A DNA stretch of 64,000 bases from Pseudomonadota bacterium (GCA_039804685.1 JBDLVQ010000021.1:20923-84922), one strand, 5' to 3'. Positions 35,788-50,147 are shown, counted from the first letter of the stretch. Translations and numbers: made by a program. The notes: generated by a model not told the origin, from the letters alone.

Positions 35788-36249
35788 ATGTTTGGAGCGA
35801 TGCCAGATTTCAATCAAAGTCTTGAAATGTTCAAAACCATGTGGGGCAATTCGCCAACACCTGGGGATTTAAGTGGTTTTGGGGCGGGTATTGGAGGGGG
35901 GGCAGGTATGCCAACGCTCAATATCGAAGAGCTAGATAAGCGTATTCAGGACCTTAAAAGCGTTGAAAACTGGCTGCAATTAAATATGAGCGTCCTCAGA
36001 AGCACAATTCAGGGCCTAGAGGTTCAGCGCGCCACATTGGCAGCTTTACAAAGCTTTAGCGCTGCTATGAATCCTGAAGCAATGGCGGAAGCCGGTAAAG
36101 CCGCCCAAAAAGCTGCTAGCCAAGCAACTCAAGCTGCAACAGAAATGGCAACTGAGATGGCTACGGGTAGCTTTTCAAGCAAGAAAACCGCAAAACCCCG
36201 TCAGAGCAAGCCTCGCGCAACAAGTAGCCGCGGCGCCAAAGGAAGTTGA
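35788..36249 (+). CDS. phaM: PhaM-family PHA granule protein
   Basis: EELDKRIQDLKSVENWLQLN..VLRSTIQGLEVQRATL core and basic C-tail; SD AGGAG. Confidence 0.75.
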   Translation: MFGAMPDFNQSLEMFKTMWGNSPTPGDLSGFGAGIGGGAGMPTLNIEELDKRIQDLKSVENWLQLNMSVLRSTIQGLEVQRATLAALQSFSAAMNPEAMAEAGKAAQKAASQATQAATEMATEMATGSFSSKKTAKPRQSKPRATSSRGAKGS

Positions 36250-37231
36250 GGTGGGCGATGGCCTCGCCCATCGCAAACGTGAGTTGGTGTAGATCTAACT
36301 CACGTTTAAACATGACTGGCACCAAATCTCTGGCATGCCCACGTCCACTGGAACAAAATGTCATTGTCTCTTGTAGACGATCTGCGTGATGTTGCTTTAG
36401 CTGTTCAACACGAAAATGCAATCCATTAAATGGCTTACCATGTGATGGCAAAACCAAAACACCATCTGGTAAATCGAGGTATCTCTCTATTGAACTCAAA
36501 TAAAGCCCCAAAGGATCAGCATCGGGCTCAGTATCAAAAACACTGACATTAGTCGAGATCCTCGGAAGCACCATATCACCTGAAATCAGCAAATTTAAAT
36601 CTGCACACCAAAATGATGCATGCTCTGGGGCATGGCCATAACCAACAATAACTTTCCAAGAGTGCCCCCCAATTTGAATCACCTCATTGTCTAGAATTCT
36701 TCTAAATCGTGGCGGCAGGCTAGGTACCATATTGCTAAAGTAATCTGCACGAGCCCTAATTTTTTCTAAATCAGACTCCTCCGTTAAGCCATGCTTAGAA
36801 AAATGCTCGGCAGCCCCGCCCCCACCAGCTACTGAACCCGTCTTTGTTCCAGATGGACTGATGAGCCACTTGGCCAACAGAAAATCAGTCATTGTTATCC
36901 AAAGTGGCACACCCCATTTTTCACATAACCATGATGAAAGACCAATGTGGTCAGGATGCATGTGGGTCACAATCACTCTAACAATTGGCAAGCCCTCAAG
37001 TTCATTCTTGAAGATATCTTCCCACGCTTCCTTGCTTGCTTCATTAGCAATTCCACAATCAACAAGCGTCCAGCCATCAATGCCATTAAATGAGTCTCTT
37101 AGTAACCACAAATTAATATGATTAAGTGCAAACGGTAAAGGCATGCGCACCCATTTAACAAAGGAATTAAGAGCCTTTGCTTGACCAACTTTGGGTAAAT
37201 CATCCTCCAATGGATAGTTAATTTCGCTCAT
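36161..37231 (-). CDS. MBL-fold metallo-hydrolase
   Basis: THMHPDHIG, GHAPEH, ISGD, PSHG, MGEAIAHL. Confidence 0.9.
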   Translation of the reverse strand: MSEINYPLEDDLPKVGQAKALNSFVKWVRMPLPFALNHINLWLLRDSFNGIDGWTLVDCGIANEASKEAWEDIFKNELEGLPIVRVIVTHMHPDHIGLSSWLCEKWGVPLWITMTDFLLAKWLISPSGTKTGSVAGGGGAAEHFSKHGLTEESDLEKIRARADYFSNMVPSLPPRFRRILDNEVIQIGGHSWKVIVGYGHAPEHASFWCADLNLLISGDMVLPRISTNVSVFDTEPDADPLGLYLSSIERYLDLPDGVLVLPSHGKPFNGLHFRVEQLKQHHADRLQETMTFCSSGRGHARDLVPVMFKRELDLHQLTFAMGEAIAHLNFLWRRGYLLREACSDGVLRFSCLKSYP

Positions 37232-37354
37232 CAATATTTTTCACTCTTACCACCAAAGACAGCGTGGTTTTTTAAGATCAGATTTATACAGGTACTAAAT
37301 AACTATAATGCTACAAAGACAGTTATATTGTTAATCAATCAACATAGGCTTAAC

Positions 37355-38029
37355 ATGACATCATCAAACAATCCCTACATCTTATCTAAGTTGCTAGATA
37401 ACAATAAAGAGTGGGTTGCATCAGTTACAAAATCCGACCCTAACTACTTTAGTCGTTTAGTTGGTCAACAAGCTCCAGAATACTTATGGATCGGTTGCTC
37501 AGACTCTAGAGTTCCCGCCAATCAAATTACCGGACTAGCCCCTGGTGAAGTTTTCGTTCATAGAAATATTGCGAACGTGGTGGTACATACCGATTTAAAC
37601 GCGCTTTCAGTTATTCAGTTTGCCGTTGATCAAATTAAAGTGAAGCACATTATTGTTGTTGGGCATTATGGCTGTTCTGGGGTTCGAGCTGCCCAAAAGA
37701 AGGCCCGCATTGGACTGGCTGATAATTGGATTCGTCACGTGCAAGATGTTCAATATAAGCATGGTAAATATTTGGGAACTGTTCTTAAAGAATCAGAGCA
37801 GTTTGATCATCTTTGTGAGCTTAATGTGATTGAGCAAGTCATGAACGTATGCCAAACAACCAGCGTACAAGATGCTTGGTCTAACAACCAAGAATTAACT
37901 GTGCACGGTTGGATTTATGATCTAAAAGATGGTGGCGTCAGAGATCTTGACATCAGCATCAAGAGTGCATCTGAGCTTGAGTCTCGCTATCAAACAGTAT
38001 TAACAAAGAATTATTCTATCGGTGAGTAA
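37355..38029 (+). CDS. can: Beta-class carbonic anhydrase
   Basis: IGCSDSRVP, FVHRNIAN, GHYGCSG. Confidence 0.96.
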   Translation: MTSSNNPYILSKLLDNNKEWVASVTKSDPNYFSRLVGQQAPEYLWIGCSDSRVPANQITGLAPGEVFVHRNIANVVVHTDLNALSVIQFAVDQIKVKHIIVVGHYGCSGVRAAQKKARIGLADNWIRHVQDVQYKHGKYLGTVLKESEQFDHLCELNVIEQVMNVCQTTSVQDAWSNNQELTVHGWIYDLKDGGVRDLDISIKSASELESRYQTVLTKNYSIGE

Positions 38030-38216
38030 CTCAAATCCATCAATAACTAATAGGCCAGCGTCTCCATGCATTAACTTATGCAGAATGGATGATGATGATC
38101 TTTATTGTTTGGGCTGCTTTAGGACGCTCGATGAAATTGCAGTTTGGAGCGAACTAAGTGTGTCAGAAAAAGAACCTATTTGGTTGGCTCTAGAAGAGAG
38201 AGCTTCACAGAAATAA
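38022..38216 (+). CDS. DUF1289 family protein
   Basis: SPCINLC...CLGCFRTLDEI..W. Confidence 0.88.
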   Translation: MSNSNPSITNRPASPCINLCRMDDDDLYCLGCFRTLDEIAVWSELSVSEKEPIWLALEERASQK

Positions 38217-38220
38217 AATA

Positions 38221-38250
38221 AAAAAGGGTCACTTTCGTGACCCTTTTCTT
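38221..38250. terminator. Bidirectional intrinsic terminator
   Basis: AAAAGGGTCAC-TTTC-GTGACCCTTTT with A and T runs on either side. Confidence 0.88.
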
Positions 38251-38275
38251 CCATCTCGAAATTAATTCATATAGA

Positions 38276-39259
38276 TTAATCTGCGTAGATGCCAGCCTTC
38301 TTGATGATTGGCGTCCACAATTCAATTTGAGCTTTCAAATGAGCTTTGTGACCAGCAGGGCTAGCATTTTTCTCGTTAGGGACTGTAGCACCCAAATCAA
38401 GCATTTTTGCTTTGAAGCCTGCATCATTAATACCGGCTTTAATAGCTGCAGATAATTTATCTGTGGCAGCCTTAGATGTGCCCTTGGGAGCATAAACACC
38501 GTGCCATACATTCACTTGGAAATTTTTCAACCCTTGCTCATGCAATGTTGGGATATCTTTGAATGCAGGAATACGTTGCAATGTTGTCGCGCCATATGCC
38601 TTTACTGAACCAGCCTTTAACTGACCAGCCAAGTTAGTTGTTTGGTCACACATCAATTGCACTTGACCGCCCATAAGATCTGTCAACGCTGGGGCAGTTC
38701 CTTTGTATGGCACCGTTGTCATATCTTGCTGAATTGAGCTCATGAACAATAAACCGCACAAGTGGCTAGCTGATCCAACACCTGCATTTGCATAGGCAAT
38801 CTTTGTTCCATTTGCTTTAATGTAAGCCAACAACTCTTTGTAGTTCTTAGGTGGTAAATCTTTGTTCGCAACCATTACCATTGGCACATCAGCGACTTGA
38901 CCTAAGTGCTCAAAATCAGTTAATGGATCGTAGCCCAAGTTACGGTATAGGCCTGGAGCTGTAGACATACCAATGTGATGAATCAAAAGTGTATAACCGT
39001 CATTCGTGGCATTCATTACTTTTTTAGCAGCAATCGTCCCACCAGCGCCTGGTGAGTTATCAACAATCACCTGTTGCTTCAATGCTTTACCCATCACAAG
39101 AGCTAATTCACGAGCAACTTTATCTGTAGGGCCGCCCGCAGCAAACGGCACGACCAAAGTTACTGGTTTGTCATCGGGGAAAGCAGCCTGAGATGCACCT
39201 GATACAAGAGCAGCTAAAACACCAACTGCAACGATCGCTTTGCGAAAATTCTTATTCAT
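38276..39259 (-). CDS. Bug/TctC tripartite tricarboxylate transporter substrate-binding protein
   Basis: VPFAAGGPTD, NSPGAGG, GVGSASHL, VPYKGTAPA; SD GGAG before ATG 39259. Confidence 0.93.
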   Translation of the reverse strand: MNKNFRKAIVAVGVLAALVSGASQAAFPDDKPVTLVVPFAAGGPTDKVARELALVMGKALKQQVIVDNSPGAGGTIAAKKVMNATNDGYTLLIHHIGMSTAPGLYRNLGYDPLTDFEHLGQVADVPMVMVANKDLPPKNYKELLAYIKANGTKIAYANAGVGSASHLCGLLFMSSIQQDMTTVPYKGTAPALTDLMGGQVQLMCDQTTNLAGQLKAGSVKAYGATTLQRIPAFKDIPTLHEQGLKNFQVNVWHGVYAPKGTSKAATDKLSAAIKAGINDAGFKAKMLDLGATVPNEKNASPAGHKAHLKAQIELWTPIIKKAGIYAD

Positions 39260-39441
39260 TAATATCTCCTTGACAGTTGTTGCCATTAAAAATAAGCAAA
39301 TCAACAAATTCCATTGTAAGGAAAAATGAAGGAAAAGACATAGCGCTAGCCCTTCAATTCGCTAGTGGATACCCTAATTGGGACATTTAAATTCTCGAGT
39401 ATCTCGGTAAATTTTAAATATCCATAACAGAGGTGGGGCCT

Positions 39442-39864
39442 CTATGCCAGAAGAAATTTATTGTGATCAGCAGTAACCATAATTAATTCCTTTTCTGCTC
39501 GCTTTGCAATTTTGAGAACTAATTTATCCTTGCTTATTAGAGTAGAGGGTTTGAGGGTATAAGCCAAATTAATAAAGACCTGATCATCTCTGTCTTTACA
39601 TTTCCAAGGGGCAACCTGCAAATCATCATCATTAATAGCCCTAGACCAGGATTTCCACTGTTGAATAGCCTGAGTTTGCTGATCTAAAGTTAATTTGAAT
39701 TGAGGTCTACTAAGTACATCAATCAATTCATCAATTGTTTTATGAGTTGCAACTGCATCAAGCTTTTGAGCCTCTAAAGCAGATCTTAGAGGGTGCGCTC
39801 GCTCATCATCAAAAACCAAAATGTCCAAAAGGATGTTGGTATCCAAAACAACTACTGGTCTCAT
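39442..39864 (-). CDS. PIN domain protein
   Basis: VVLDTN, E..DVL.R, C.DRDDQ.F, LISKD. Confidence 0.85.
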   Translation of the reverse strand: MRPVVVLDTNILLDILVFDDERAHPLRSALEAQKLDAVATHKTIDELIDVLSRPQFKLTLDQQTQAIQQWKSWSRAINDDDLQVAPWKCKDRDDQVFINLAYTLKPSTLISKDKLVLKIAKRAEKELIMVTADHNKFLLA

Positions 39865-39951
39865 GCAAATCTCTCTATAAACATTTAAGTTGGCTACTCT
39901 CAGATATCATAAGACAACCCCCAAATAAATAGCATTAAATAAAGGCATGCG

Positions 39952-40644
39952 ATGACGATATATGGATCTCAAGAACACGAAGAAATGGTTAATCAAATAT
40001 TGGGAGTACTTGAACCCCAGTATTTAGGGTTAGCAGAAGAAATTGATGGCATTACACCCAATGAAAAAATTATTTGGCATTTAACTTCTTTGTGGATGAA
40101 TGCTGCAAAACGCTTAGATCGAGATAAGCTTCCAGTTCACAAAGAACAGTTTAAATTTATTCTTTACTCCGTAGGCCATATTGTTGAATTACTAAGCGAT
40201 ACCGAGTGGGATCAAGTTGAAGATGAATGGATGGAACATTTGGCAAGGCTGAGAACTTTCAATGACGGCTTTTTGGGTCTCTATTTTCACAACAAAGAAA
40301 TTTCAGAAAGAACTGCTGATTTTTACAATATTTATGCGTGGCTAATTACTTTGTATCATTGGTTTGGATCAAGCGTATATCAAAAAATAAAACCTCGCAT
40401 AACCGATGAAACTAGCGAAAGTTATTTAATCGCCAACCAAAGTATGACTAACTTATTGGCCAACTTAACTGAGTTTACAGAGCGCTATCAAATTAAAGAG
40501 GATGTTTCCTCTTTCATTCAACAAGGCTTGAATTTAGTCATCAACAGACCGGCTAATTTCCCATGGGATCTTTATTTCGAGGCGGAAAAGGGGGAAGTTA
40601 AGCTACCCTCTTTTTCACCCCCAAAATCAAGTGAAAAAAGTTAA
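39952..40644 (+). CDS. Hypothetical protein (helical, acidic; no family recognised)
   Basis: 230 codon open frame with SD-like AAAGG; visibly AT-rich. Confidence 0.7.
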   Translation: MTIYGSQEHEEMVNQILGVLEPQYLGLAEEIDGITPNEKIIWHLTSLWMNAAKRLDRDKLPVHKEQFKFILYSVGHIVELLSDTEWDQVEDEWMEHLARLRTFNDGFLGLYFHNKEISERTADFYNIYAWLITLYHWFGSSVYQKIKPRITDETSESYLIANQSMTNLLANLTEFTERYQIKEDVSSFIQQGLNLVINRPANFPWDLYFEAEKGEVKLPSFSPPKSSEKS

Positions 40645-40651
40645 ACTAAAT

Positions 40652-40666
40652 TTACTCCACCGTAAC
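40652..40666 (-). repeat. Synonymous copy of the glmS 3' end (att-like)
   Basis: GTTACGGTGGAGTAA versus glmS GTTACCGTCGAGTGA (44022-44036); both read VTVE-stop and the 3 mismatches are all silent. Confidence 0.6.
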
Positions 40667-40693
40667 GTCCGAGTTCTCAACGGGGGTCACAAG

Positions 40694-41143
40694 TTATTTC
40701 TTTCTAAACTCTTTATGACAGGCGTTACAACTATCTCTTGCCTGCTCAAACGCAATCTTGAGCCTCTTTTGGTCTTTGAGTTCTGCGACCTTGACTAGAT
40801 TTGCTGTTTTCGCCTCTAAGTCTTTAGCCATCTTCTTAAATTGGTCTTCTTCCAGCCAAATATCATCTTTAGCTTTGGTATCGCCTCTTTCGCTTCCCGC
40901 CACAAAACCCTCCCACGGCAACTGACTAAGGTATTCGACTCTCTTGGCATCCACAATTACCGCATTTGCGTCATATGGTCTTGTGCCATCTACCGTCTGG
41001 AGAATGCGACTCCAATAGGTTGCCATTAATGTAAAGGCGGCTTTGCGATGTTTGATAGCTTGCTCAATTTTGCGATCTTCTTGAGCAATGCTGGCTGTTG
41101 ATACGAACAGGGTTAGCAAGGCTAAGGAAATAATTTTCTTCAT
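40694..41143 (-). CDS. Cytochrome c' (class II)
   Basis: Signal peptide, R.AAF..M, AK.DIW, C-terminal CNACH. Confidence 0.92.
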   Translation of the reverse strand: MKKIISLALLTLFVSTASIAQEDRKIEQAIKHRKAAFTLMATYWSRILQTVDGTRPYDANAVIVDAKRVEYLSQLPWEGFVAGSERGDTKAKDDIWLEEDQFKKMAKDLEAKTANLVKVAELKDQKRLKIAFEQARDSCNACHKEFRKK

Positions 41144-41158
41144 TTGAAATTCCAGAAA

Positions 41159-42334
41159 TCAATGAAACATTGGGTAAAGAACCATTCCAGCGACAGCGGC
41201 GGCAATCACAACCACTGGTTCAGTGAGCTTCTTATATTTCCACAGCAGTGCGGTAGTCACAATAGCCAATACCGCAGTCGGAATATCCACAATAGAGCGC
41301 TGAGCAATAACAATAACTGACCCTGTAATGGCACCAACTGCGGCGGCAGTTACACCGTCAATAAAAGCAACCAGACTTGGGTTCTTGCCATATTTTTTAA
41401 AGTAAGGCGCTGGGATAACGGTAAACAAGTAGCAAGGTACAAAAGTGGCTAATGCCGCAACACTAGCGCCCGTAAAGCCAGCAATGAGATAGCCGATAAA
41501 GCCTACGGTAATGACTACTGGTCCTGGAGTAATCATCGCAACGGCAACCGCATCGACAAACTGCTTCTCTGTTAACCACTGATGCTCTACTACGACACCA
41601 CCATACAAAAATGGGACGATAGCCAATCCCGAACCAAAAACAAAAGCCCCCGCTTTGGTAAAGAAGATAGCAATTTGACTCAATAGAGATAAATCAAAGC
41701 TACCCCATATGCTGGTGAATACTGGCACTTGAGTAACAGCAAGCCCATTCAGTCCACCACTCTTAAACCATTTAGGTGGCGCTTTAACGAACAAGGTAAT
41801 AAAGCCTGCCGCAAAGACGAGTGAGGCAATTTCAGATTGGGTCACTACAGTGCTGACTACCATCACTATAAAAATTGCCCACAGCAACTTATCTTTACCA
41901 ACAGTTTTCTTAGTGAGCTTTTGAGCGCTAATGGCAATAATGCCAATTACTGCGGCGCCTACCCCGTAAAACACCGAGCGCATCCACGCCAAATCACCAT
42001 AAGCAACATATGCCCAGCCTAGAGCCACCACCATTAAAAATGAGGGAACTACAAAAGCAATACCAGCTAGTGTTGCGCCCAGAATACGGTAGTGAACATA
42101 GCCCATATAAATGGCTAACTGAGCTGCCATTGGACCTGGCGCCATTTGCGCTAAAGCCATACCTTCTTTGTAGTCAGCCTCGGTAATCCAGCGATACTTT
42201 TCAACAAGATCACGATTCATATAGCCCGCTAGAGCTACAGGACCACCAAAGCCCCAAGTGCCGAGCTTGAGCATATAGACGACTAATTGCCAAAGGCTGT
42301 AACTTGGTTTTGAATCTAACTGGGCTGTCTCCAT
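41159..42334 (-). CDS. chrA: Chromate ion transporter (long-chain CHR)
   Basis: GFGGP, QMAPGP and second repeat FGSG / MITPGP. Confidence 0.92.
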   Translation of the reverse strand: METAQLDSKPSYSLWQLVVYMLKLGTWGFGGPVALAGYMNRDLVEKYRWITEADYKEGMALAQMAPGPMAAQLAIYMGYVHYRILGATLAGIAFVVPSFLMVVALGWAYVAYGDLAWMRSVFYGVGAAVIGIIAISAQKLTKKTVGKDKLLWAIFIVMVVSTVVTQSEIASLVFAAGFITLFVKAPPKWFKSGGLNGLAVTQVPVFTSIWGSFDLSLLSQIAIFFTKAGAFVFGSGLAIVPFLYGGVVVEHQWLTEKQFVDAVAVAMITPGPVVITVGFIGYLIAGFTGASVAALATFVPCYLFTVIPAPYFKKYGKNPSLVAFIDGVTAAAVGAITGSVIVIAQRSIVDIPTAVLAIVTTALLWKYKKLTEPVVVIAAAVAGMVLYPMFH

Positions 42335-42428
42335 AGCGATCTCTTTAATTTTTATTTTTTATGATTAGTCATCATACGCCGAGATTATGCGTGCGCCCAA
42401 GGGATTCCATTGAGAACGATAAGTTTGA

Positions 42429-42779
42429 TTACAGCAGATTAAGCCCAAAGTTTTTCATCAAGATAGAAAACAAGCCGAATAGAAGTACGGTGAGAACTAC
42501 ACATACCCCCAACGTCAACCAAAATCCAATCCTTGGGAGAAGATAAGGAAAAAATAAAAACATCGGCAATGTAGGGATCACATACCAAAAGGTGTAATAA
42601 GCGTGATTGGCTATTTTCTCTTCTGGCTGGTTTTCAACATATAGCCACACTAGAGTTAAAAGTGTCATCAATGGCAATGCCGCAATAAATCCACCCAGTC
42701 GATCACTTCTTTTAGCAGCCTCAGAAATGAATACAACCATTCCTGCGGTTAGGAGGTATTTAGTAATGATCCAAGCCAT
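42429..42779 (-). CDS. DUF3147 family small membrane protein
   Basis: KYLLTA..V..ISE.AKRS..LGGFIAALPL, YTFWYV.PTLPMF. Confidence 0.85.
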   Translation of the reverse strand: MAWIITKYLLTAGMVVFISEAAKRSDRLGGFIAALPLMTLLTLVWLYVENQPEEKIANHAYYTFWYVIPTLPMFLFFPYLLPRIGFWLTLGVCVVLTVLLFGLFSILMKNFGLNLL

Positions 42780-42874
42780 AGAAGCCTTTAATGTTGAGGG
42801 GGATTATATGATTATAGAAATGATACTTAAAACGATATTACACATATATACGCATATACGTATGTATAGAAACC

Positions 42875-43666
42875 TTACTTTCTTTGATTAAGTTTGCGCG
42901 AGCTCCATATGTCTAGTTGCCGTTGAGCTTCAGCAGTGATGCCATCAATAGAATCTTGGGGTAATTGCTTTAGGCATTCAGCCAACGCTTCGGGGCTGAG
43001 TTTTTCAGCAGGCTTGCTCTTCTTGATTTCTTGGGATGACTTACCATCCCAAGCAAATGGATTACCAAACGCTGGCGTATCGGGCAGGCAATCATCTCTA
43101 TAGACTGGCGCATCATTTGTAGCAAATTGCGTAAATGAAATCGTTCTTTCAAAGATGAGTGCTTTGCCTGTTGGTGTGGGTGGCAAAGCTGGCATAGATT
43201 TCATTGCCCTTCTAGCCAATTGCTCCGCTTTATCAGAAGTTTTCCAAAGCGTTTCAACCTTGACAAGGGTTCCATTTGGAGCAATTTCAATTCTGAATCT
43301 CACTTGCCCTTGATCTGGACCCTCAACAGCTGCGCCCATCATACTTCGCACTTGCTGACCGAAAGAGTGGCGATATCCTTTGCTATTTTTTAATGTGTAT
43401 TTAGATGCGAAAGCCCACTCTTCAGCAGTTGGCGCTGATGGCGCATCTAATGAAGCTGGTTGTTTATCGCTTCCTAGCCTAGGATTTAGATCGTCACCAT
43501 TTTTAGTAATAGGCTCTTCAAGGCGAACCTCAATAATGCTTAGATTTACATCTTTGGGTTTAGCAAAGATAAAGCCTTCATAGGTAGCCCACCACAGAAT
43601 TAGTCCAAGATGAACGGCAATTGATAGCCAGAGCGCAAAAAGGAGTCTGGGGGGCTTTTTTTTCAT
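42875..43666 (-). CDS. TonB C-terminal-like membrane-anchored protein
   Basis: SIAVHLG anchor, V.FRIEI.PNG.L..V....S...AE.LA.RA, LPPTP. Confidence 0.7.
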   Translation of the reverse strand: MKKKPPRLLFALWLSIAVHLGLILWWATYEGFIFAKPKDVNLSIIEVRLEEPITKNGDDLNPRLGSDKQPASLDAPSAPTAEEWAFASKYTLKNSKGYRHSFGQQVRSMMGAAVEGPDQGQVRFRIEIAPNGTLVKVETLWKTSDKAEQLARRAMKSMPALPPTPTGKALIFERTISFTQFATNDAPVYRDDCLPDTPAFGNPFAWDGKSSQEIKKSKPAEKLSPEALAECLKQLPQDSIDGITAEAQRQLDIWSSRKLNQRK

Positions 43667-43704
43667 TAACTTAGGAGCTTATCCGATACAAGTTCCAATT
43701 GGAA

Positions 43705-44025
43705 CTATCCAAGCACCCTCAACCCAGTAATCCTATATTTTGGGGGAGTATTCAATCGATCATCCCTGATCTTGCGTTTTTTGTAGATCGAGAATACGCC
43801 TTCAGCACTCAAATCGAATCCTCTGGGTGAACGATAGCCTTTTTGGGTAAGAGTCTCTGAGATGCCCCTAAAGGTCATCTTTTCTTGATCTCTCATTTGA
43901 ATAATGCTGTCTGAAAGTGTTTTTTGATAGTCAGAATACGCCCCAATCATTAGCGATCCGGTTCTGATGATTACTTCGAATTTGACAGCAAAGCCTTGAA
44001 GCTCTACTACCCCCTTTGGAATCAC
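43705..44025 (-). CDS. Small recombinase-domain-like HTH protein (possible remnant; start uncertain)
   Basis: [20 protein letters not shown] resembles the IA..LN..G..TPRG helix of serine recombinase DNA-binding domains; GTG overlaps the glmS stop. Confidence 0.55.
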
Positions 44026-45842
44026 TCGACGGTAACTGACTTAGCGAGATTTCTTGGCTTATCAACATCAGTGCCTCTAGCGCAAGCTGTGTGGTAAGCC
44101 AACAACTGCAACGGAATGACGTGGAGAATCGGAGATAAGTCACCGTAGTGCTCTGGCATACGAATGACATGTATGCCATCACTTGCGGTCATTTGAGTAT
44201 CAGAGTCAGCAAACACATAAAGTTTCCCGCCTCTAGCTTTAACCTCTTGCATATTAGATTTTAATTTCTCTAATAAGGCATCATTCGGAGCTACTGTAAC
44301 AACTGGCATTTGCTCAGTCACTAAAGCAAGTGGGCCATGCTTTAACTCTCCAGCTGGATAAGCTTCAGCATGAATATAAGAAATTTCTTTTAACTTAAGC
44401 GCCCCCTCAAGGGCAATCGGATAGTGCAAACCTCTTCCCAAGAAAAGCGCATTCTCACACTTAGAAAACGCCTCACTCCAAGCAATAATTTGTGGCTCAA
44501 GCGCCAAAGCAGAATTGATTGCTGAAGGCAAATGACGCAAACGATTGAAGGCATCTTTTTCTTGCTCACCACTCAATTGCTTTCTATGTTTTGCCAAAGT
44601 AAGGGCCAATAAATACAAGCCAACCAACTGAGTAGTAAATGCTTTTGTAGATGCCACACCAATCTCTGTACCAGCGTGGGTCAAGAAACGATATTTAGTT
44701 TCTCTAACCATGGCACTAGTAGCAACATTACAAACAGCGAGTGTTTCTGTGTGCCCGAGTGATTGAGCATGACGAAGCGCTGCTAACGTATCGGCAGTTT
44801 CTCCAGATTGAGAAACCACGATCACTAGTGCATTTGGATTTGGCACAGTTTTGCGATAGCGATATTCGCTTGCTATCTCAACTTGTGTTGAGATCCCTGC
44901 CAAATCTTCTAACCAATATTTAGCAGTGCTTGCTGCGTAATAACTTGTGCCGCAGGCCAAAATCAAAACGCTATTAATTTTTTCCCAATCAGCTGATGTT
45001 GCTCCGAATAAAGATGGATCAGCATGCTGCGCGTGACCTAATGTGTCTGCGATAGCTCGAGGCTGCTCAAAAATTTCTTTTTGCATGTAATGCTGATATG
45101 GCCCAAGATCAACAGCTGCCACCTGTGCAGGAACATCTTTTTGGGCTCGTGTCTGAATCTCGCCATTGATATTAGTAATAGTTACGCTATCAGTTGTTAA
45201 AACAGCAATATCACCTTCTTCAAGATATGACATTGCCTTAGCATGCTCTGCAACAGCCAAAGCATCTGAAGCCAGGAAATTTTCTTGATTGCCATAAGCA
45301 ACAACCAGAGGTGAACCCACTCGAGCTCCAACTAAGATACCCGGCGCATCTTGAGCAATAACTCCGATCGCATAAGCGCCGTGCAATCTTGGAACAATGG
45401 CGCGCACAGCGGCAGGCAAATCTCTTTGACTCATGTTCACATACGTTTGATGAATTAAGTGAGCAATAACTTCCGTATCTGTTTGCGAAACAAAGATATA
45501 ACCCGCAACCTTTAGCTCTTCTCTTAATTCCTCATAATTTTCAATAATGCCGTTATGAACCAAACCAATCAGATCGTTTGAAAAGTGAGGGTGCGCATTA
45601 ACAGTATCAGGCTTGCCATGAGTAGCCCAACGGGTGTGAGCAATGCCAATATTGCCAGACATTTTCTGACCCTGCTCGGCCAAATCAGAGACTCGAGCCG
45701 TAGTTCGCGCTCTATCTAATTGTCCATTAGATACCAAAGCAAAACCGCAAGAATCATAACCGCGGTATTCAAGCCGACGTAGGCCTTCAACTAAAACATC
45801 AACGACATTTCTTTTAGCAACTGCGCCAACAATCCCACACAT
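44022..45842 (-). CDS. glmS: Glutamine-fructose-6-phosphate aminotransferase
   Basis: [41 protein letters not shown]. Confidence 0.98.
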
Positions 45843-45875
45843 GACTATTTCCTATTGGTTAATGCTTTATCTAAT

Positions 45876-47243
45876 TTATTTTGATTTTTTGACTGGTCGC
45901 TGCCAGTTCAATGAAATTTGTTTAACCCTTGTAATGGTTAGCTGACCTGCTGGAGCATCTTTGGTGAGCGTTGTTCCTGCTCCCAAGGTTGCCCCTTTGC
46001 CAACGGTCACTGGGGCCACCAATTGAGTATCTGAACCAATAAACGCTTCATCTTCAATTACTGTTCGGAATTTATTAACGCCGTCGTAATTACAAGTAAT
46101 GGTGCCTGCACCCACGTTGACTTTAGAACCAATCGTTGCATCACCAATGTAGGCCAAATGATTTGCCTTACTGTTAGAAGCAATCTGGCTGTTCTTTACT
46201 TCAACAAAGTTTCCAATATGAACTTCATCAGCAAGTTCTGTACCAGGGCGCAATCTTGCATAAGGACCAATCACACTCTTGCCGCCAACTTTGGCTTGAT
46301 CAATATGTGTATAGGCATGGATCGCCGCGCCAGCCTCAATCACGGCATCACGTATCACGCAGTAAGGGCCAACTGACACCCCATCTGCCAAAGTGACTTG
46401 GCCTTCAAAAATACATCCAACATCAATCTTTACATCTTGGCCACAAATTAATTGACCTCGAATATCTATTCTTGCAGGGTCCATTAAAGTGACCCCTGCA
46501 TCCAGCAGTCGCTTGGCTAACTCAAGCTGCCATGTGCGCTCTAACTCTGCGAGTTGTTCCCGACTGTTAACTCCAACAGTTTCCCAAGTTGCATCAGGAG
46601 ATGTTGTGTGAACTGGAACTCCCTCATTAACCGCCAAAGAGATAATGTCTGTTAAATAATATTCCCCTTGAGCATTATTAGGCTCTAGAGCTTTTAACCA
46701 ACGCTTTAATTGCGCAGTGGGGACGGCCATCAGACCTGTGTTAATTTCTGTAATAGCCTTGATCTCTGTGCTGGCATCCTTCTCTTCAACAATCGATTGA
46801 ACGCCACCATCTAGATTTCTAACAATTCTTCCATAGCCCGTTGGGTTCGGCATGATTTGGGTCAACAAACCCAAGGCACCTTCACCAGCTAACCGACATA
46901 AACGCTCTAAGGTTCTAGTTTGTATCAATGGCACATCGCCATACAAAATTAAAGTGGGCTCATTGTCGATTAGAAGATCAGCCGCCTGTAAGACAGCGTG
47001 TCCCGTACCCTTTTGCTCTTTCTGAACAACTGTTTGGGCAGAAATTGCTGATTTCTCGAGATACTCACGAACGGCATGACCGCCATGCCCAAGAACAACA
47101 ATCGACTGGTGCTGACCTGATATGGCCTGAGCACTGGCAATGGCATGGGCAAGCATGGCCTTGCCAGCAAGGGGGTGTAAAACCTTGGGCACAGCAGATC
47201 GCATACGCTTTCCCTGCCCAGCAGCTAATATGACTATATTCAT
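45876..47243 (-). CDS. glmU: Bifunctional GlmU
   Basis: [16 protein letters not shown], hexapeptide repeats, TCNYDG. Confidence 0.98.
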
Positions 47244-47256
47244 TGATAATAATTAT

Positions 47257-48174
47257 ATGTGTTTATTCAAGCACCTCCTAACTCCGAAGCTAATCATGGT
47301 TTATTTCATATTTGCCATTATTTCTGGGTGTAGTGCTGTTCGCCTGATATACAACCAAGGGGACACCCTCACCTATTGGTGGCTAGATGATCATATTGGC
47401 TTTAATTCAGAGCAGGAGGCCTTTACCAGGTCGTCTTTAGAGCATCTTTTTGGGTGGCATCGAACAGAACAGTTGCAAGCCATTGCTACGACATTAGATA
47501 AAGCTCAACAAAAGCTTCAAAAGCCCATATCTAAAGAAGAGATGATGGGTTTAACAAGCGACTTTAAAAAACATGGTTACAGCATATTTGATCAAATCAT
47601 CCCTGATGCAGCCAAATTAGTAATTAGCCTAGAGCCAGGACAAATTGACTCGATCGAAAAACGGTTTGCAAAAAACAATGAAAAGTTTCGTAAAGAGTTT
47701 TTACCGGACAATAAAGATAAACAAGTGAAAGTTCGGGCCGACAGAGTTATTGACAGAACCGAATGGCTATTTGGTGGCCTTAGCAAAGATCAAGAAAAAA
47801 AGATTCGAGAGTTTTTACTTAATCATCCAGTCGATATGGAGATGGTCTACAAAGAGCGATTGCGTAGACAATCAGATTTCATTCAAATTTGCAAAGAAGT
47901 GAATCAAAAGAAGTTAAATCAAAAAGCAACAGAGGCCCTGTTAAAAGACTACATGAAGTTCTTTGAGGCTGGCAAAACAAAAGATCAGCAAGCTTTTAAC
48001 AAAAAATGGATGGAAACCGGGGCGGAGGTCACATCATTCATTACACAGATAATGAATGATGAGCAACGTCAACACGCTTTCGAAAGAATTGGTGGGTGGG
48101 TGGCAGATGTGCGAGAACTGATTAGAGATTCATCTGCACTGGCTGCCAAGAGATCTGCTCCTCTAAATCGATAG
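47257..48174 (+). CDS. DUF6279-like lipoprotein
   Basis: Lipobox [12 protein letters not shown]....YWWLD, WHR..QL; start uncertain (47257 or 47296). Confidence 0.78.
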
Positions 48175-48973
48175 AACCGCTGCTATCGGTTAAATTTTTA
48201 AAATCAAATTCTTTGCCATCCATCAAGTGTGATGGCACCACATTTTGTAATGAGCTAAATAAACTTTCGACACGGCCGGGGAATTTCTTTTCCCAGTCAC
48301 GCAATAACGCTTTCATTGCATTTCTTTGAAGATTCTCTTGGCTACCACAAAGGTTGCAAGGAATAATTGGGAACTCCATTTGTAAGGCGTATTTCTCTAA
48401 GTAGCGCTCTGGCACATAAGCCAACGGACGAATAACAATATGCTTGCCATCATCAGACCTCAGCTTTGGCGGCATTCCTTTTAACTTTCCACCATGGAAC
48501 ATATTCATTAACAGCGTTTCTAAGATGTCATCACGATGATGCCCTAGGGCAATCTTGGTGGCGCCCAACTCCCCTGCCACACGATACAAAATGCCTCGAC
48601 GCAATCTTGAACATAAACCACAAGTTGTCTTTCCCTCTGGGATTACCCTCTTAACAATCCCGTATGTATCCTGCTCTTCAATATGAAAAGGTATACCCAA
48701 CTTCTTAAGGTAATTAGGCAAAATTTCTTCTGGAAAGCCTGGTTGCTTTTGATCAAGATTAACAGCAACTAACTCAAAATTGATGGGCGCCCGCTCACGC
48801 AATTTCATCAAAACGTCCAACATGGCATAACTATCTTTTCCACCAGAAAGGCAAACCATGACCTTGTCACCTTCTTCGATCATGTTGTAGTCAACAATAG
48901 CTTGCCCTGCTAAACGACAGAGTTTTTTATCTAGCTTATTTTCTTCATAAGCGATTTTGCGTGGATCTTTCAT
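48122..48973 (-). CDS. ttcA: tRNA 2-thiocytidine(32) synthetase
   Basis: SGGKDS, CGLC, GHHRDD, PCNLC. Confidence 0.96.
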
Positions 48974-49365
48974 TCTTTAATCAAAAATATCTCAACGCCA
49001 ACAGCGTCACAATCTGGGTAAACATCTGGCTTGGCAGTTGAAACTCTTACCGCCCGAACGTGAGGGTGAGCCAACATGATTTTAGCAACATCGTCACATA
49101 GAGTTTCTTGCAAATGAATATGGCCCTTAGCCACTCTTTCAACAATACTTCTTCGCATAAAGTCATAGTCAAGGACTTCCTCGAGACTATCTTTCGTTGG
49201 CGTACTTTCGTTTAATGGAACAAACAAATCAACATTGATTAGAACGCGCTGCTCACCACGCTTCTCAAAATCATGAACGCCAATATTGATATAAATTTCG
49301 TAATTGCTTAAAAACAATCTACGGCAATCCATTAAACGTGGGTGGGATAGCAAAGCTTGCATCAT
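48970..49365 (-). CDS. folB: Dihydroneopterin aldolase
   Basis: IGVHDFE...EQRV..NVDL, DYD, LQETL, KPDVY. Confidence 0.9.
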
Positions 49366-50147
49366 TACTCCGTTAAAAACATAACGTCACGATCTGTGGA
49401 CAACAAATGCTGTCCGCCATCAACATAAAGTGTAGTGCCAGTAATGGCACTAGCGTTGGCCAAGTAAACCACAGCGCCCGCAATATCTTCGGGTGCTGAT
49501 GATTTGCCAAGCGGCGTCATTGCATGGGCTTTTACAAAACCATCCTCTGACTGATCTCCGGAAACCATTGTAATTCCTGGGGCAACTCCAACCACTCGCA
49601 AAATAGGGGCAAATGACTGCGCCAACAAGGTTGTTGCTGAGTGAAGTGCTGCTTTTGAGAGGGTGTAAGACAAGAAGTCCGGATTGAGATTGGCTAACTT
49701 CTGGTCAAGTAAGTTAATAATCACGCCTGAAGGCGTCTCACCCCCTGCCGCCTTTAGCTTGGCATGTTGACGGTATAAATCACGAGACAAGATGAGTGGC
49801 GCAGCAACGTTAGTAGTCATGTGACGATCTAATGCTGCATAACTAAAACTTGATGCGACGTCATACTGAAATAATGAGGCGTTATTAACCAAACAAGTTG
49901 GGACACCCAAAGCTTCAGTGCACCGTGCAATCAATTGATTGGCTTGTTTTTCATCTGACAAATCAGCTTGTAAAGCAATTCCTCGTTGGCCGGTAGCCAA
50001 AATCTCTTGAACAGTTTCCTCGGCAGCATCTTTTGAATTGCCATAATGAATTGCCACATCCCAACCATCTTTAGCAAGGCCAATTGCAATACCCTTCCCG
50101 AGGCGCTTTGCCGCACCAGTCACCAATGCAATTTTTTGAATTTTCAT
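49365..50147 (-). CDS. SDR oxidoreductase (pteridine reductase-like)
   Basis: TGAAKRLG, NNASLF, YTLSKAAL. Confidence 0.9.
   Translation of the reverse strand: MKIQKIALVTGAAKRLGKGIAIGLAKDGWDVAIHYGNSKDAAEETVQEILATGQRGIALQADLSDEKQANQLIARCTEALGVPTCLVNNASLFQYDVASSFSYAALDRHMTTNVAAPLILSRDLYRQHAKLKAAGGETPSGVIINLLDQKLANLNPDFLSYTLSKAALHSATTLLAQSFAPILRVVGVAPGITMVSGDQSEDGFVKAHAMTPLGKSSAPEDIAGAVVYLANASAITGTTLYVDGGQHLLSTDRDVMFLTE

Follow-up and report, generated by a model that had tools for sequence, protein, structure and literature searches.

A recombinase-less accessory block in the 3' end of glmS, most probably derived from an element integrated by a large serine recombinase

The 3' end of glmS is a "safe harbour" that, to our knowledge, has so far been known to be exploited by Tn7-type transposons. 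Tn7 inserts about 25 bp past the glmS stop codon, where 5 bp of target are duplicated but none of the coding sequence. It moves by DDE (Asp-Asp-Glu) transposition with TnsABC and TnsD, and Tn7-like elements including CRISPR-associated transposons (CAST) home to attTn7 via TnsD/TniQ. In staphylococci, the staphylococcal cassette chromosome (SCC) elements, e.g. SCCmec, use the CcrAB large serine recombinases (LSRs) to enter the 3' end of rlmH (orfX), and ccr-less pseudo-SCC forms as well as tandem composites occur. In streptococci, cis-mobilizable elements (CIMEs) at the 3' end of fda are derived from integrative and conjugative elements (ICEs) of the ICESt1/ICESt3 type and probably move by accretion, in which an autonomous element integrates in tandem. 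Here we describe a block of accessory genes at positions 40652-44036 of a 64,000-nucleotide stretch of DNA (the window) from a Pseudomonadota bacterium (GCA_039804685.1 JBDLVQ010000021.1:20923-84922). Judged from sequence comparison, this block is most probably a recombinase-less derivative of an LSR-integrated element in the 3' end of glmS.

The features that delimit the block are listed below, with attL and attR denoting the attachment (att) sites at its glmS-proximal and distal ends, respectively.

44022..45842, minus strand: glmS, 606 aa, with Pfam SIS and GATase domains; syntenic with glmU in all relatives
44022..44036, minus strand: attL core GTTACCGTCGAGTGA (V-T-V-E-stop of glmS); predicted crossover AC at 44033-44032
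43997..44021, minus strand: element-side (P-right) attL arm, a 7-nt spacer followed by GGGGGTAG; pattern also in Methylophilaceae and Lysobacter
40652..40693, minus strand: LSR vestige, last 13 codons plus stop (LVTPVENSDVTVE-stop)
within 40652..40693, minus strand: element-side (P-left) attR arm, ACCCCC on the gene strand at 40682-40687, a 15-nt spacer and the core
40652..40666, minus strand: attR core GTTACGGTGGAGTAA, putatively the displaced original glmS end from AC (40663-40662) onward

A first reading, made from the sequence alone (the sequence-only reading), had proposed that a silent duplicate of the glmS 3' end bounds the block, and the duplicate is real. The second VTVE-stop 15-mer lies on the same strand as glmS and matches the genuine end at 12/15 positions, with all three differences silent. 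Within the window, the 12/15 match alone is not significant: 15-mers with at most three mismatches occur on average 0.84 times per shuffled window, and at least two matches were obtained in 24 of 100 shuffles. The pair is nevertheless counted as real because of its rarity in the assembly, its identity to glmS ends of relatives and its recurrence in the genus. A degenerate 15-mer pattern, with TGG permitted as the last codon, is matched four times in the 1.58-Mb assembly, and three of these matches have a true stop (glmS, the distal copy and one on another contig). The distal 15-mer is identical to the genuine glmS end of the relatives G015 and G023. Moreover, a second VTVE-stop copy with the same flanking motif is found downstream of glmS in 12 of the 241 genus genomes. 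The third match in the assembly, GTAACTGTTGAATAA (G000:C24:3556-3570), presumably terminates an unrelated gene.

The inverted G5/C5 motif that the same reading had placed just inside each end was likewise recovered. ACCCCC at 44009-44014 (plus strand), i.e. GGGGGT on the gene strand, lies 7 nt past the glmS stop, and GGGGGT at 40682-40687 (plus strand), i.e. ACCCCC on the gene strand, lies 15 nt ahead of the distal 15-mer. The corresponding attL pattern (VTVE-stop-N5-9-GGGGGT) is present at the glmS end of 18/241 genus genomes and in none with a reversed control, and the attR pattern (CCCCC-N13-17-VTVE-stop) is present in 12/241, compared with four genomes in the reversed control. The real att arms were found through comparison across genomes; an 18-nt inverted pair from a repeat search (40587-40604 / 44000-44017) was rejected as an att arm. 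Longer homology around the 15-mers was dismissed as well, as the 27 nt upstream of both copies fail to align by eye. Such a lack is expected where the end of glmS is compared with that of an LSR gene.

Duplicated glmS ends were sought in other genomes, as the sequence-only reading had suggested, and intact elements were found in which the distal repeat constitutes the last codons of an LSR. In G006 (Polynucleobacter sp. 30F-ANTBAC), the distal VTVE-stop terminates a 573-aa protein in which all three LSR domains (Resolvase, Recombinase and Zn_ribbon_recom) were identified. The LSRs of G100 (64% identical to that of G006, C-terminus ...KLVTPVQNSDVTVE), a Methylophilaceae bacterium (65% identical, element of ~27 kb) and Lysobacter koreensis (49% identical, element of ~10 kb) are homologous by sequence, and all four genomes hold intact forms at the same glmS site. 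The order in intact elements is glmS-attL, a small protein of the family termed P0001, variable cargo, often a small resolvase, the LSR and attR. At the far end of the Methylophilaceae and Lysobacter elements, the glmS end is followed by GGGGGT and a P0001 homolog. The claim that the block is the relic of a non-Tn7, recombinase-type element, which uses the glmS 3' end as its bacterial attachment site (attB) and supplies a replacement end, is thus borne out by intact LSR elements at the same site.

In the window, LVTPVENSDVTVE-stop (40652-40693) begins right after the stop codon of a cytochrome c' gene. Because the LSRs of intact relatives end at this very point, and because 48 nt here are 91.7% identical to the LSR end of G100, the distal repeat is attributed to the vestige of a deleted LSR gene, which describes it better than the earlier label of non-coding sequence. 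No match to PF00239 (Resolvase), PF07508 (Recombinase) or the LSR was obtained in the window's own assembly (91% complete). Since the window encodes no LSR beyond the last 13 codons, the block represents a derivative and not an autonomous LSR element.

The LSR itself is widespread, with 737 proteins matching at E <= 1e-20 in a set of 5.8 billion proteins, annotated at source only as "recombinase family protein" or "DNA invertase Pin-like". Among the best 120 of these 737 homologs, 66 have a VTVE C-terminus and four more end in ATVE or ITVE. In about a quarter of the closest homologs (P0005-P0124), VTVE is replaced by ...DGRG, ...GRGK or a similar terminus, which may be that of sister lineages directed at a different gene. 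About ten further homologs (~8%) stop at ...VTP, possibly due to gene calls cut short. A small serine recombinase of ~224 aa, with a Resolvase domain only and a possible role in multimer resolution or inversion, is encoded upstream of the LSR and within a few kb of it in G006 (L013 15055-15729), G100, G196 and G229, the four LSR-bearing members of the genus examined for it.

An unoccupied site should join glmS to the DNA below 40652, and precisely this arrangement is observed in G176, where glmS and the flank are 93% and 87.5% identical to the window. Its glmS end, GTTACGGTCGAGTAA, is followed by the sequence found below 40652 in the window. The two alignments of G176 (window ...40666 and 44024...) overlap by 13 nt inside the 15-mer, and its attB corresponds to the left side of attL joined to the right side of attR. 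Two features of the adjoining host DNA are relevant here.

39952..40644, plus strand: 230-aa open reading frame (ORF), host flank outside the element; convergent on glmS in empty sites
39442..39864, minus strand: PIN_3-domain protein, 140 aa, just past the glmS locus

The 230-aa ORF, for which no family was found in Pfam, NCBIfam or PHROG, is present in only 8 of the 241 genus genomes. It is located between glmS and the PIN-domain gene in all seven genomes inspected, the window included, and directly follows glmS, in convergent orientation, in the empty sites of G176, G051, G067, G166 and G168. The closest relative found first, G007 (~89% identical), joins glmS to the PIN gene (window 39863/44017) with the PIN start codon 5 nt past the glmS stop, and the 230-aa ORF is absent. 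G007 was discarded as an exact empty site, and likewise as an apparent refutation of the boundaries, given that the ORF it also lacks was shown to be host flank; the lack of this ORF reflects an independent indel in the host.

The region downstream of glmS varies across the genus, with a pirin-like gene (read from translation), PIN or other genes at this position. Together with the chance-level match of the 15-mers in the window, this variability could be taken to mean that the repeat is fortuitous and the block an ordinary flexible island, swapped by homologous recombination between conserved flanks. Such an explanation is highly improbable in view of the recurrence of VTVE-stop and arms at fixed spacing above the reversed controls, the presence of the VTVE-stop copy in other families and another class, its identity as the end of an LSR gene, and the exact rejoining of the G176 empty site at the repeat.

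Joining the two arms of an element provides the element attachment site (attP), ACCCCC-N37/38-GGGGGT, an imperfect palindrome of ~49 bp with the GGGGGT/ACCCCC motifs as its outer ends. This is the usual size of an LSR attP, for example in Bxb1 and phiC31. As attP overlaps the LSR's own stop codon, the LSR ends S-V-T-V-E-stop like GlmS. Junctions resembling attP were identified on 41 metagenome contigs, many of them with an LSR ending at the core and a P0001 gene thereafter; these may be tandem arrays or circles. In 32 of the 42 sites, the dyad centre falls between core positions A4 and C5, and mostly 14-18 of the 21 flank positions are complementary there. LSRs exchange strands at a central dinucleotide, and the AC of the Thr codon is both invariant in glmS and not palindromic. 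Because the dyad is centred there, the crossover is predicted at this AC (GTN-AC). In a filled site, the element would then have contributed the final 10 nt of glmS. The stop codons are consistent with an element-supplied glmS end: TGA terminates glmS in four of four LSR-less copies read (window, G239, G055 and G119), while TAA is found in all empty sites and all attR copies read.

The following sequence of events is proposed. Strand exchange by the LSR would take place at the AC in the middle of the core, within the Thr codon, so that glmS would keep its own sequence up to GTN-AC and receive its last 10 nt, here ending in TGA, from the element, with the original end displaced to attR. In the window copy, the LSR gene would subsequently have been deleted to its last 13 codons, with both att sites surviving. 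Because no serine recombinase was found in the assembly, the block would be mobile only with an LSR supplied in trans, e.g. by a second element integrating in tandem.

Several points weigh against this reading. The three polymorphic core positions fit no single clean crossover when compared with G176 (~7-12% diverged), and, since the variable core positions are not informative enough, the crossover point is placed by dyad symmetry only. The attP reconstructed for the window is less symmetric than most (12/21, centre at position 4.0), and the right spacer of its attL measures 7 nt, not 8; the window attL may be impaired, and this copy perhaps no longer a good substrate. Activity of the LSR on the att sites is itself deduced from their architecture. 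Furthermore, at 91% completeness of the window's own assembly, an LSR could reside on unassembled DNA. Lastly, homologous recombination in glmS, in place of site-specific integration, could have contributed to the transfer from host to host.

Alternatively, the block might be a transposon, Tn7-like or other, or an island of the tycheposon type with a tyrosine recombinase, and lie beside glmS by coincidence. Tn7 and its relatives do home to this gene. As in the present family, the highly conserved 3' end serves them as a near-universal landing site, glmS is not disrupted, and accessory genes are carried along. The junction, however, is inside the last five codons of glmS, where 15 nt of coding sequence are duplicated, unlike the downstream insertion of Tn7; the present family would use a serine recombinase within these codons and supply a replacement end. 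No Tns-type and no tyrosine-recombinase or phage-integrase domain was found with Pfam in the ORFs of the block or the scanned ORFs of the intact G006 element, and no tRNA was detected within window positions 36000-50000. For the tycheposon variant, the flexible genomic island fGI-3 of 'Ca. Methylopumilus'/OM43 provides a precedent, as it is described as a tRNA-Met/xerD tycheposon that ends at glmS (PMC10872708). The likeness extends to a variable island abutting glmS in freshwater Betaproteobacteria, and one intact LSR element of the present family occurs at glmS in a Methylophilaceae genome; the difference is that fGI-3 is delimited by tRNA-Met and characterised by xerD, a tyrosine recombinase. 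No mention of a serine recombinase or of a glmS-end duplication was returned when the paper was searched for these terms. Taken together, a transposon or tycheposon at this locus is scarcely credible, and an LSR-derived block in the glmS end remains the preferred assignment.

The distribution of the LSR-less form does not follow that of its hosts. The element genes of the window are 84-94% identical to those of G239, G055 and G119, whereas the adjacent glmS genes are only 69-74% identical; the element is missing from G176 (93%) and G007 (87%), the nearest hosts by glmS. The junction between the cytochrome c' stop and CTNGTGACCCCC is common to the window, G239 and G119, and the same vestige is kept in G055. 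These sequences indicate that the LSR was deleted once, in an ancestor, and that the LSR-less form then spread horizontally into the same site, a scenario preferred because it is more economical than repeated identical deletions. An LSR provided in trans is probably how the LSR-less form reached distantly related hosts. The earlier description as a relic therefore needs amendment: the element has indeed decayed, but it is not merely local, as one copy of the LSR-less element has spread between distant hosts.

Conversely, each lineage might have acquired its own LSR element and lost the recombinase in situ, with the LSR-less block inherited vertically and never mobile. In-situ decay certainly occurs. 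Measured from attL to attR, the LSR-bearing elements of G100, G006 and G196 span ~20 kb, ~14 kb and ~13.8 kb, and the LSR-less ones 3.4 kb (window and G239), 1.7 kb (G055) and 1.4 kb (G119), the last two being further deletion derivatives. In G018 (1.7 kb) only a dead LSR is left, a P0001-LSR fusion without the catalytic serine, and G200 retains only a 61-aa LSR tail. Still, vertical inheritance is unlikely, given the identical junction of cytochrome c' stop and 13-codon vestige in the window, G239 and G119, the discrepancy between element and glmS identities in these hosts, and the empty sites of the nearest relatives G176 and G007. Details of the G018 fusion (L016, C25 1451-3139) may be added: a 562-aa ORF joins the first ~40 residues of P0001 to the part of the LSR that begins near residue 51, and the whole "element" consists of this dead gene between attL and attR.

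A route for the horizontal spread favoured here is suggested by tandem arrangements. The left arm of a second element comes directly after the same element in G239 (L054) and on the metagenome contig L100, and tandem arrays are also present on contigs L085 and L086. The window copy has both att sites and no recombinase, and may thus be CIME-like, but there is no tandem partner in the window. The likeness to CIMEs concerns islands whose att sites look functional but which have no recombination genes of their own, and the tandem junctions in G239, L100, L085 and L086. The difference is that CIMEs need tyrosine integrases and conjugation by a partner ICE, while the partner here would be an LSR element; no transfer machinery was identified in the present family. 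By analogy with the mechanism proposed for CIMEs and with SCC composites, tandem accretion with an LSR-bearing partner is a plausible route of trans-mobilisation.

The comparison with SCC is closer in enzymology. Shared features are insertion by an LSR at the very end of the coding sequence of a conserved housekeeping gene, short flanking direct repeats that contain the 3' end of that gene, and the occurrence of tandems and of recombinase-less derivatives with intact att sites. The present family differs in its glmS target, its proteobacterial hosts and its LSR lineage, in having a single LSR, often with a small resolvase, instead of the CcrA/CcrB pair, in an attP that overlaps the LSR stop (SVTVE end), and in the small conserved protein at the attL side. 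With membership of the SCC group tied to ccr and rlmH, the correspondence is one of mechanism only, drawn by analogy.

This small protein and the cargo occupy the interior of the block.

43705..44025, minus strand: P0001, 106 aa from GTG, or ~81 aa from Met26 (43950); homologs beside attL
42875..43666, minus strand: cargo, TonB-C-like protein, 263 aa; TIGR01352, 24.8 bits, below the cut-off of 27.1
42429..42779, minus strand: cargo, small membrane protein of PRK09272 type, 116 aa; NCBIfam NF006751, 198 bits
41159..42334, minus strand: cargo, chromate efflux transporter ChrA, 391 aa; PF02417 E 6e-76, TIGR00937 E 3.5e-124
40694..41143, minus strand: cargo, cytochrome c', 149 aa; PF01322 E 2.5e-31

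The P0001 family adjoins an att arm in every member examined, with homologs beside attL in G006, G055, G119, G239, G200, G196, G100, G032, Methylophilaceae and Lysobacter, and its conserved core includes LRD...TF..IA..L. The sequence-only reading had called P0001 a recombinase-like ORF. A recombinase is ruled out, as no significant match was obtained by sequence, by structure or by hhalign against the LSR, and the 106-aa product is better described as an accessory protein without a catalytic domain. P0001 has no significant match in Pfam, NCBIfam or PHROG and none in the PDB by sequence profile, and its AlphaFold2 model (predicted local distance difference test, pLDDT, 84) gave no Foldseek match in the PDB. 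Only sub-threshold resemblance to the Recombinase domain (its helix-turn-helix, HTH, part) and to HTH families was noted. LSR directionality factors are diverse. Because of the universal linkage to the att site, our best guess is that P0001 may serve as an accessory or directionality factor.

As for the cargo, ChrA and cytochrome c' were named correctly beforehand. The TonB-like assignment is retained with reservation, since the TIGR01352 match exists but is weak; the protein is 90-93% identical in G239, G055 and G119. The gene formerly read as DUF3147 does not match that Pfam family at E <= 0.01 and belongs with NF006751 instead. Cargo-like genes with 78-84% identity are also located away from glmS in other genus genomes, namely chrA plus a TonB-like gene in G016 (C1:264889-268030) and a TonB-like gene plus the small membrane protein gene in G019 (C1:1733362-1734544). 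The cargo module therefore also exists outside the element. The 14-kb element of G006 (L013 4480-16400) carries mostly ORFs without a Pfam match, in addition to an AAA ATPase, a DnaJ-domain protein and DUF2167.

A subset of loci displays the LSR and/or P0001 gene on the strand opposite to the VTVE-stop core, so that the LSR would not end in VTVE. This reversed subfamily comprises L014 (G012:C119, 404-760) and the metagenome loci L099 (LSR and P0001 reversed), L107 (LSR) and L096 (P0001). For G012, with a reversed P0001 by attR, an inversion in situ was considered and rejected, as L096, L099 and L107 share the att sequence. The G012 type is more likely a subfamily with its gene module reversed relative to the core.

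In summary, the present family belongs to neither the SCC nor the Tn7 group and is apparently undescribed; a full-text literature search returned no report of a serine recombinase with a glmS attB, which is not proof of novelty. On balance, we lean towards a widespread, undescribed LSR family, present in Beta- and Gammaproteobacteria as well as in many marine and freshwater metagenomes, which has converged on the target of Tn7, the glmS 3' end, places its attP in the last codons of the LSR, maybe employs P0001 as a new directionality factor, and spawns cargo cassettes moved in trans by tandem accretion.

The results suggest that a second, mechanistically unrelated machine, an LSR, evolved for the same glmS codons, mimicking the gene end in its own coding sequence. 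An LSR with near-invariant glmS codons as attB could give a one-protein, landing-pad-free integration tool for many Proteobacteria, which would complement mini-Tn7. The window copy is a decayed member, and its value lies in the family it reveals. This family would explain part of the variable island beside glmS in abundant freshwater bacteria (Polynucleobacter, Methylophilaceae), and it suggests how small sets of cargo genes, such as those for chromate efflux and cytochrome c' here, can move although they lack a recombinase of their own.

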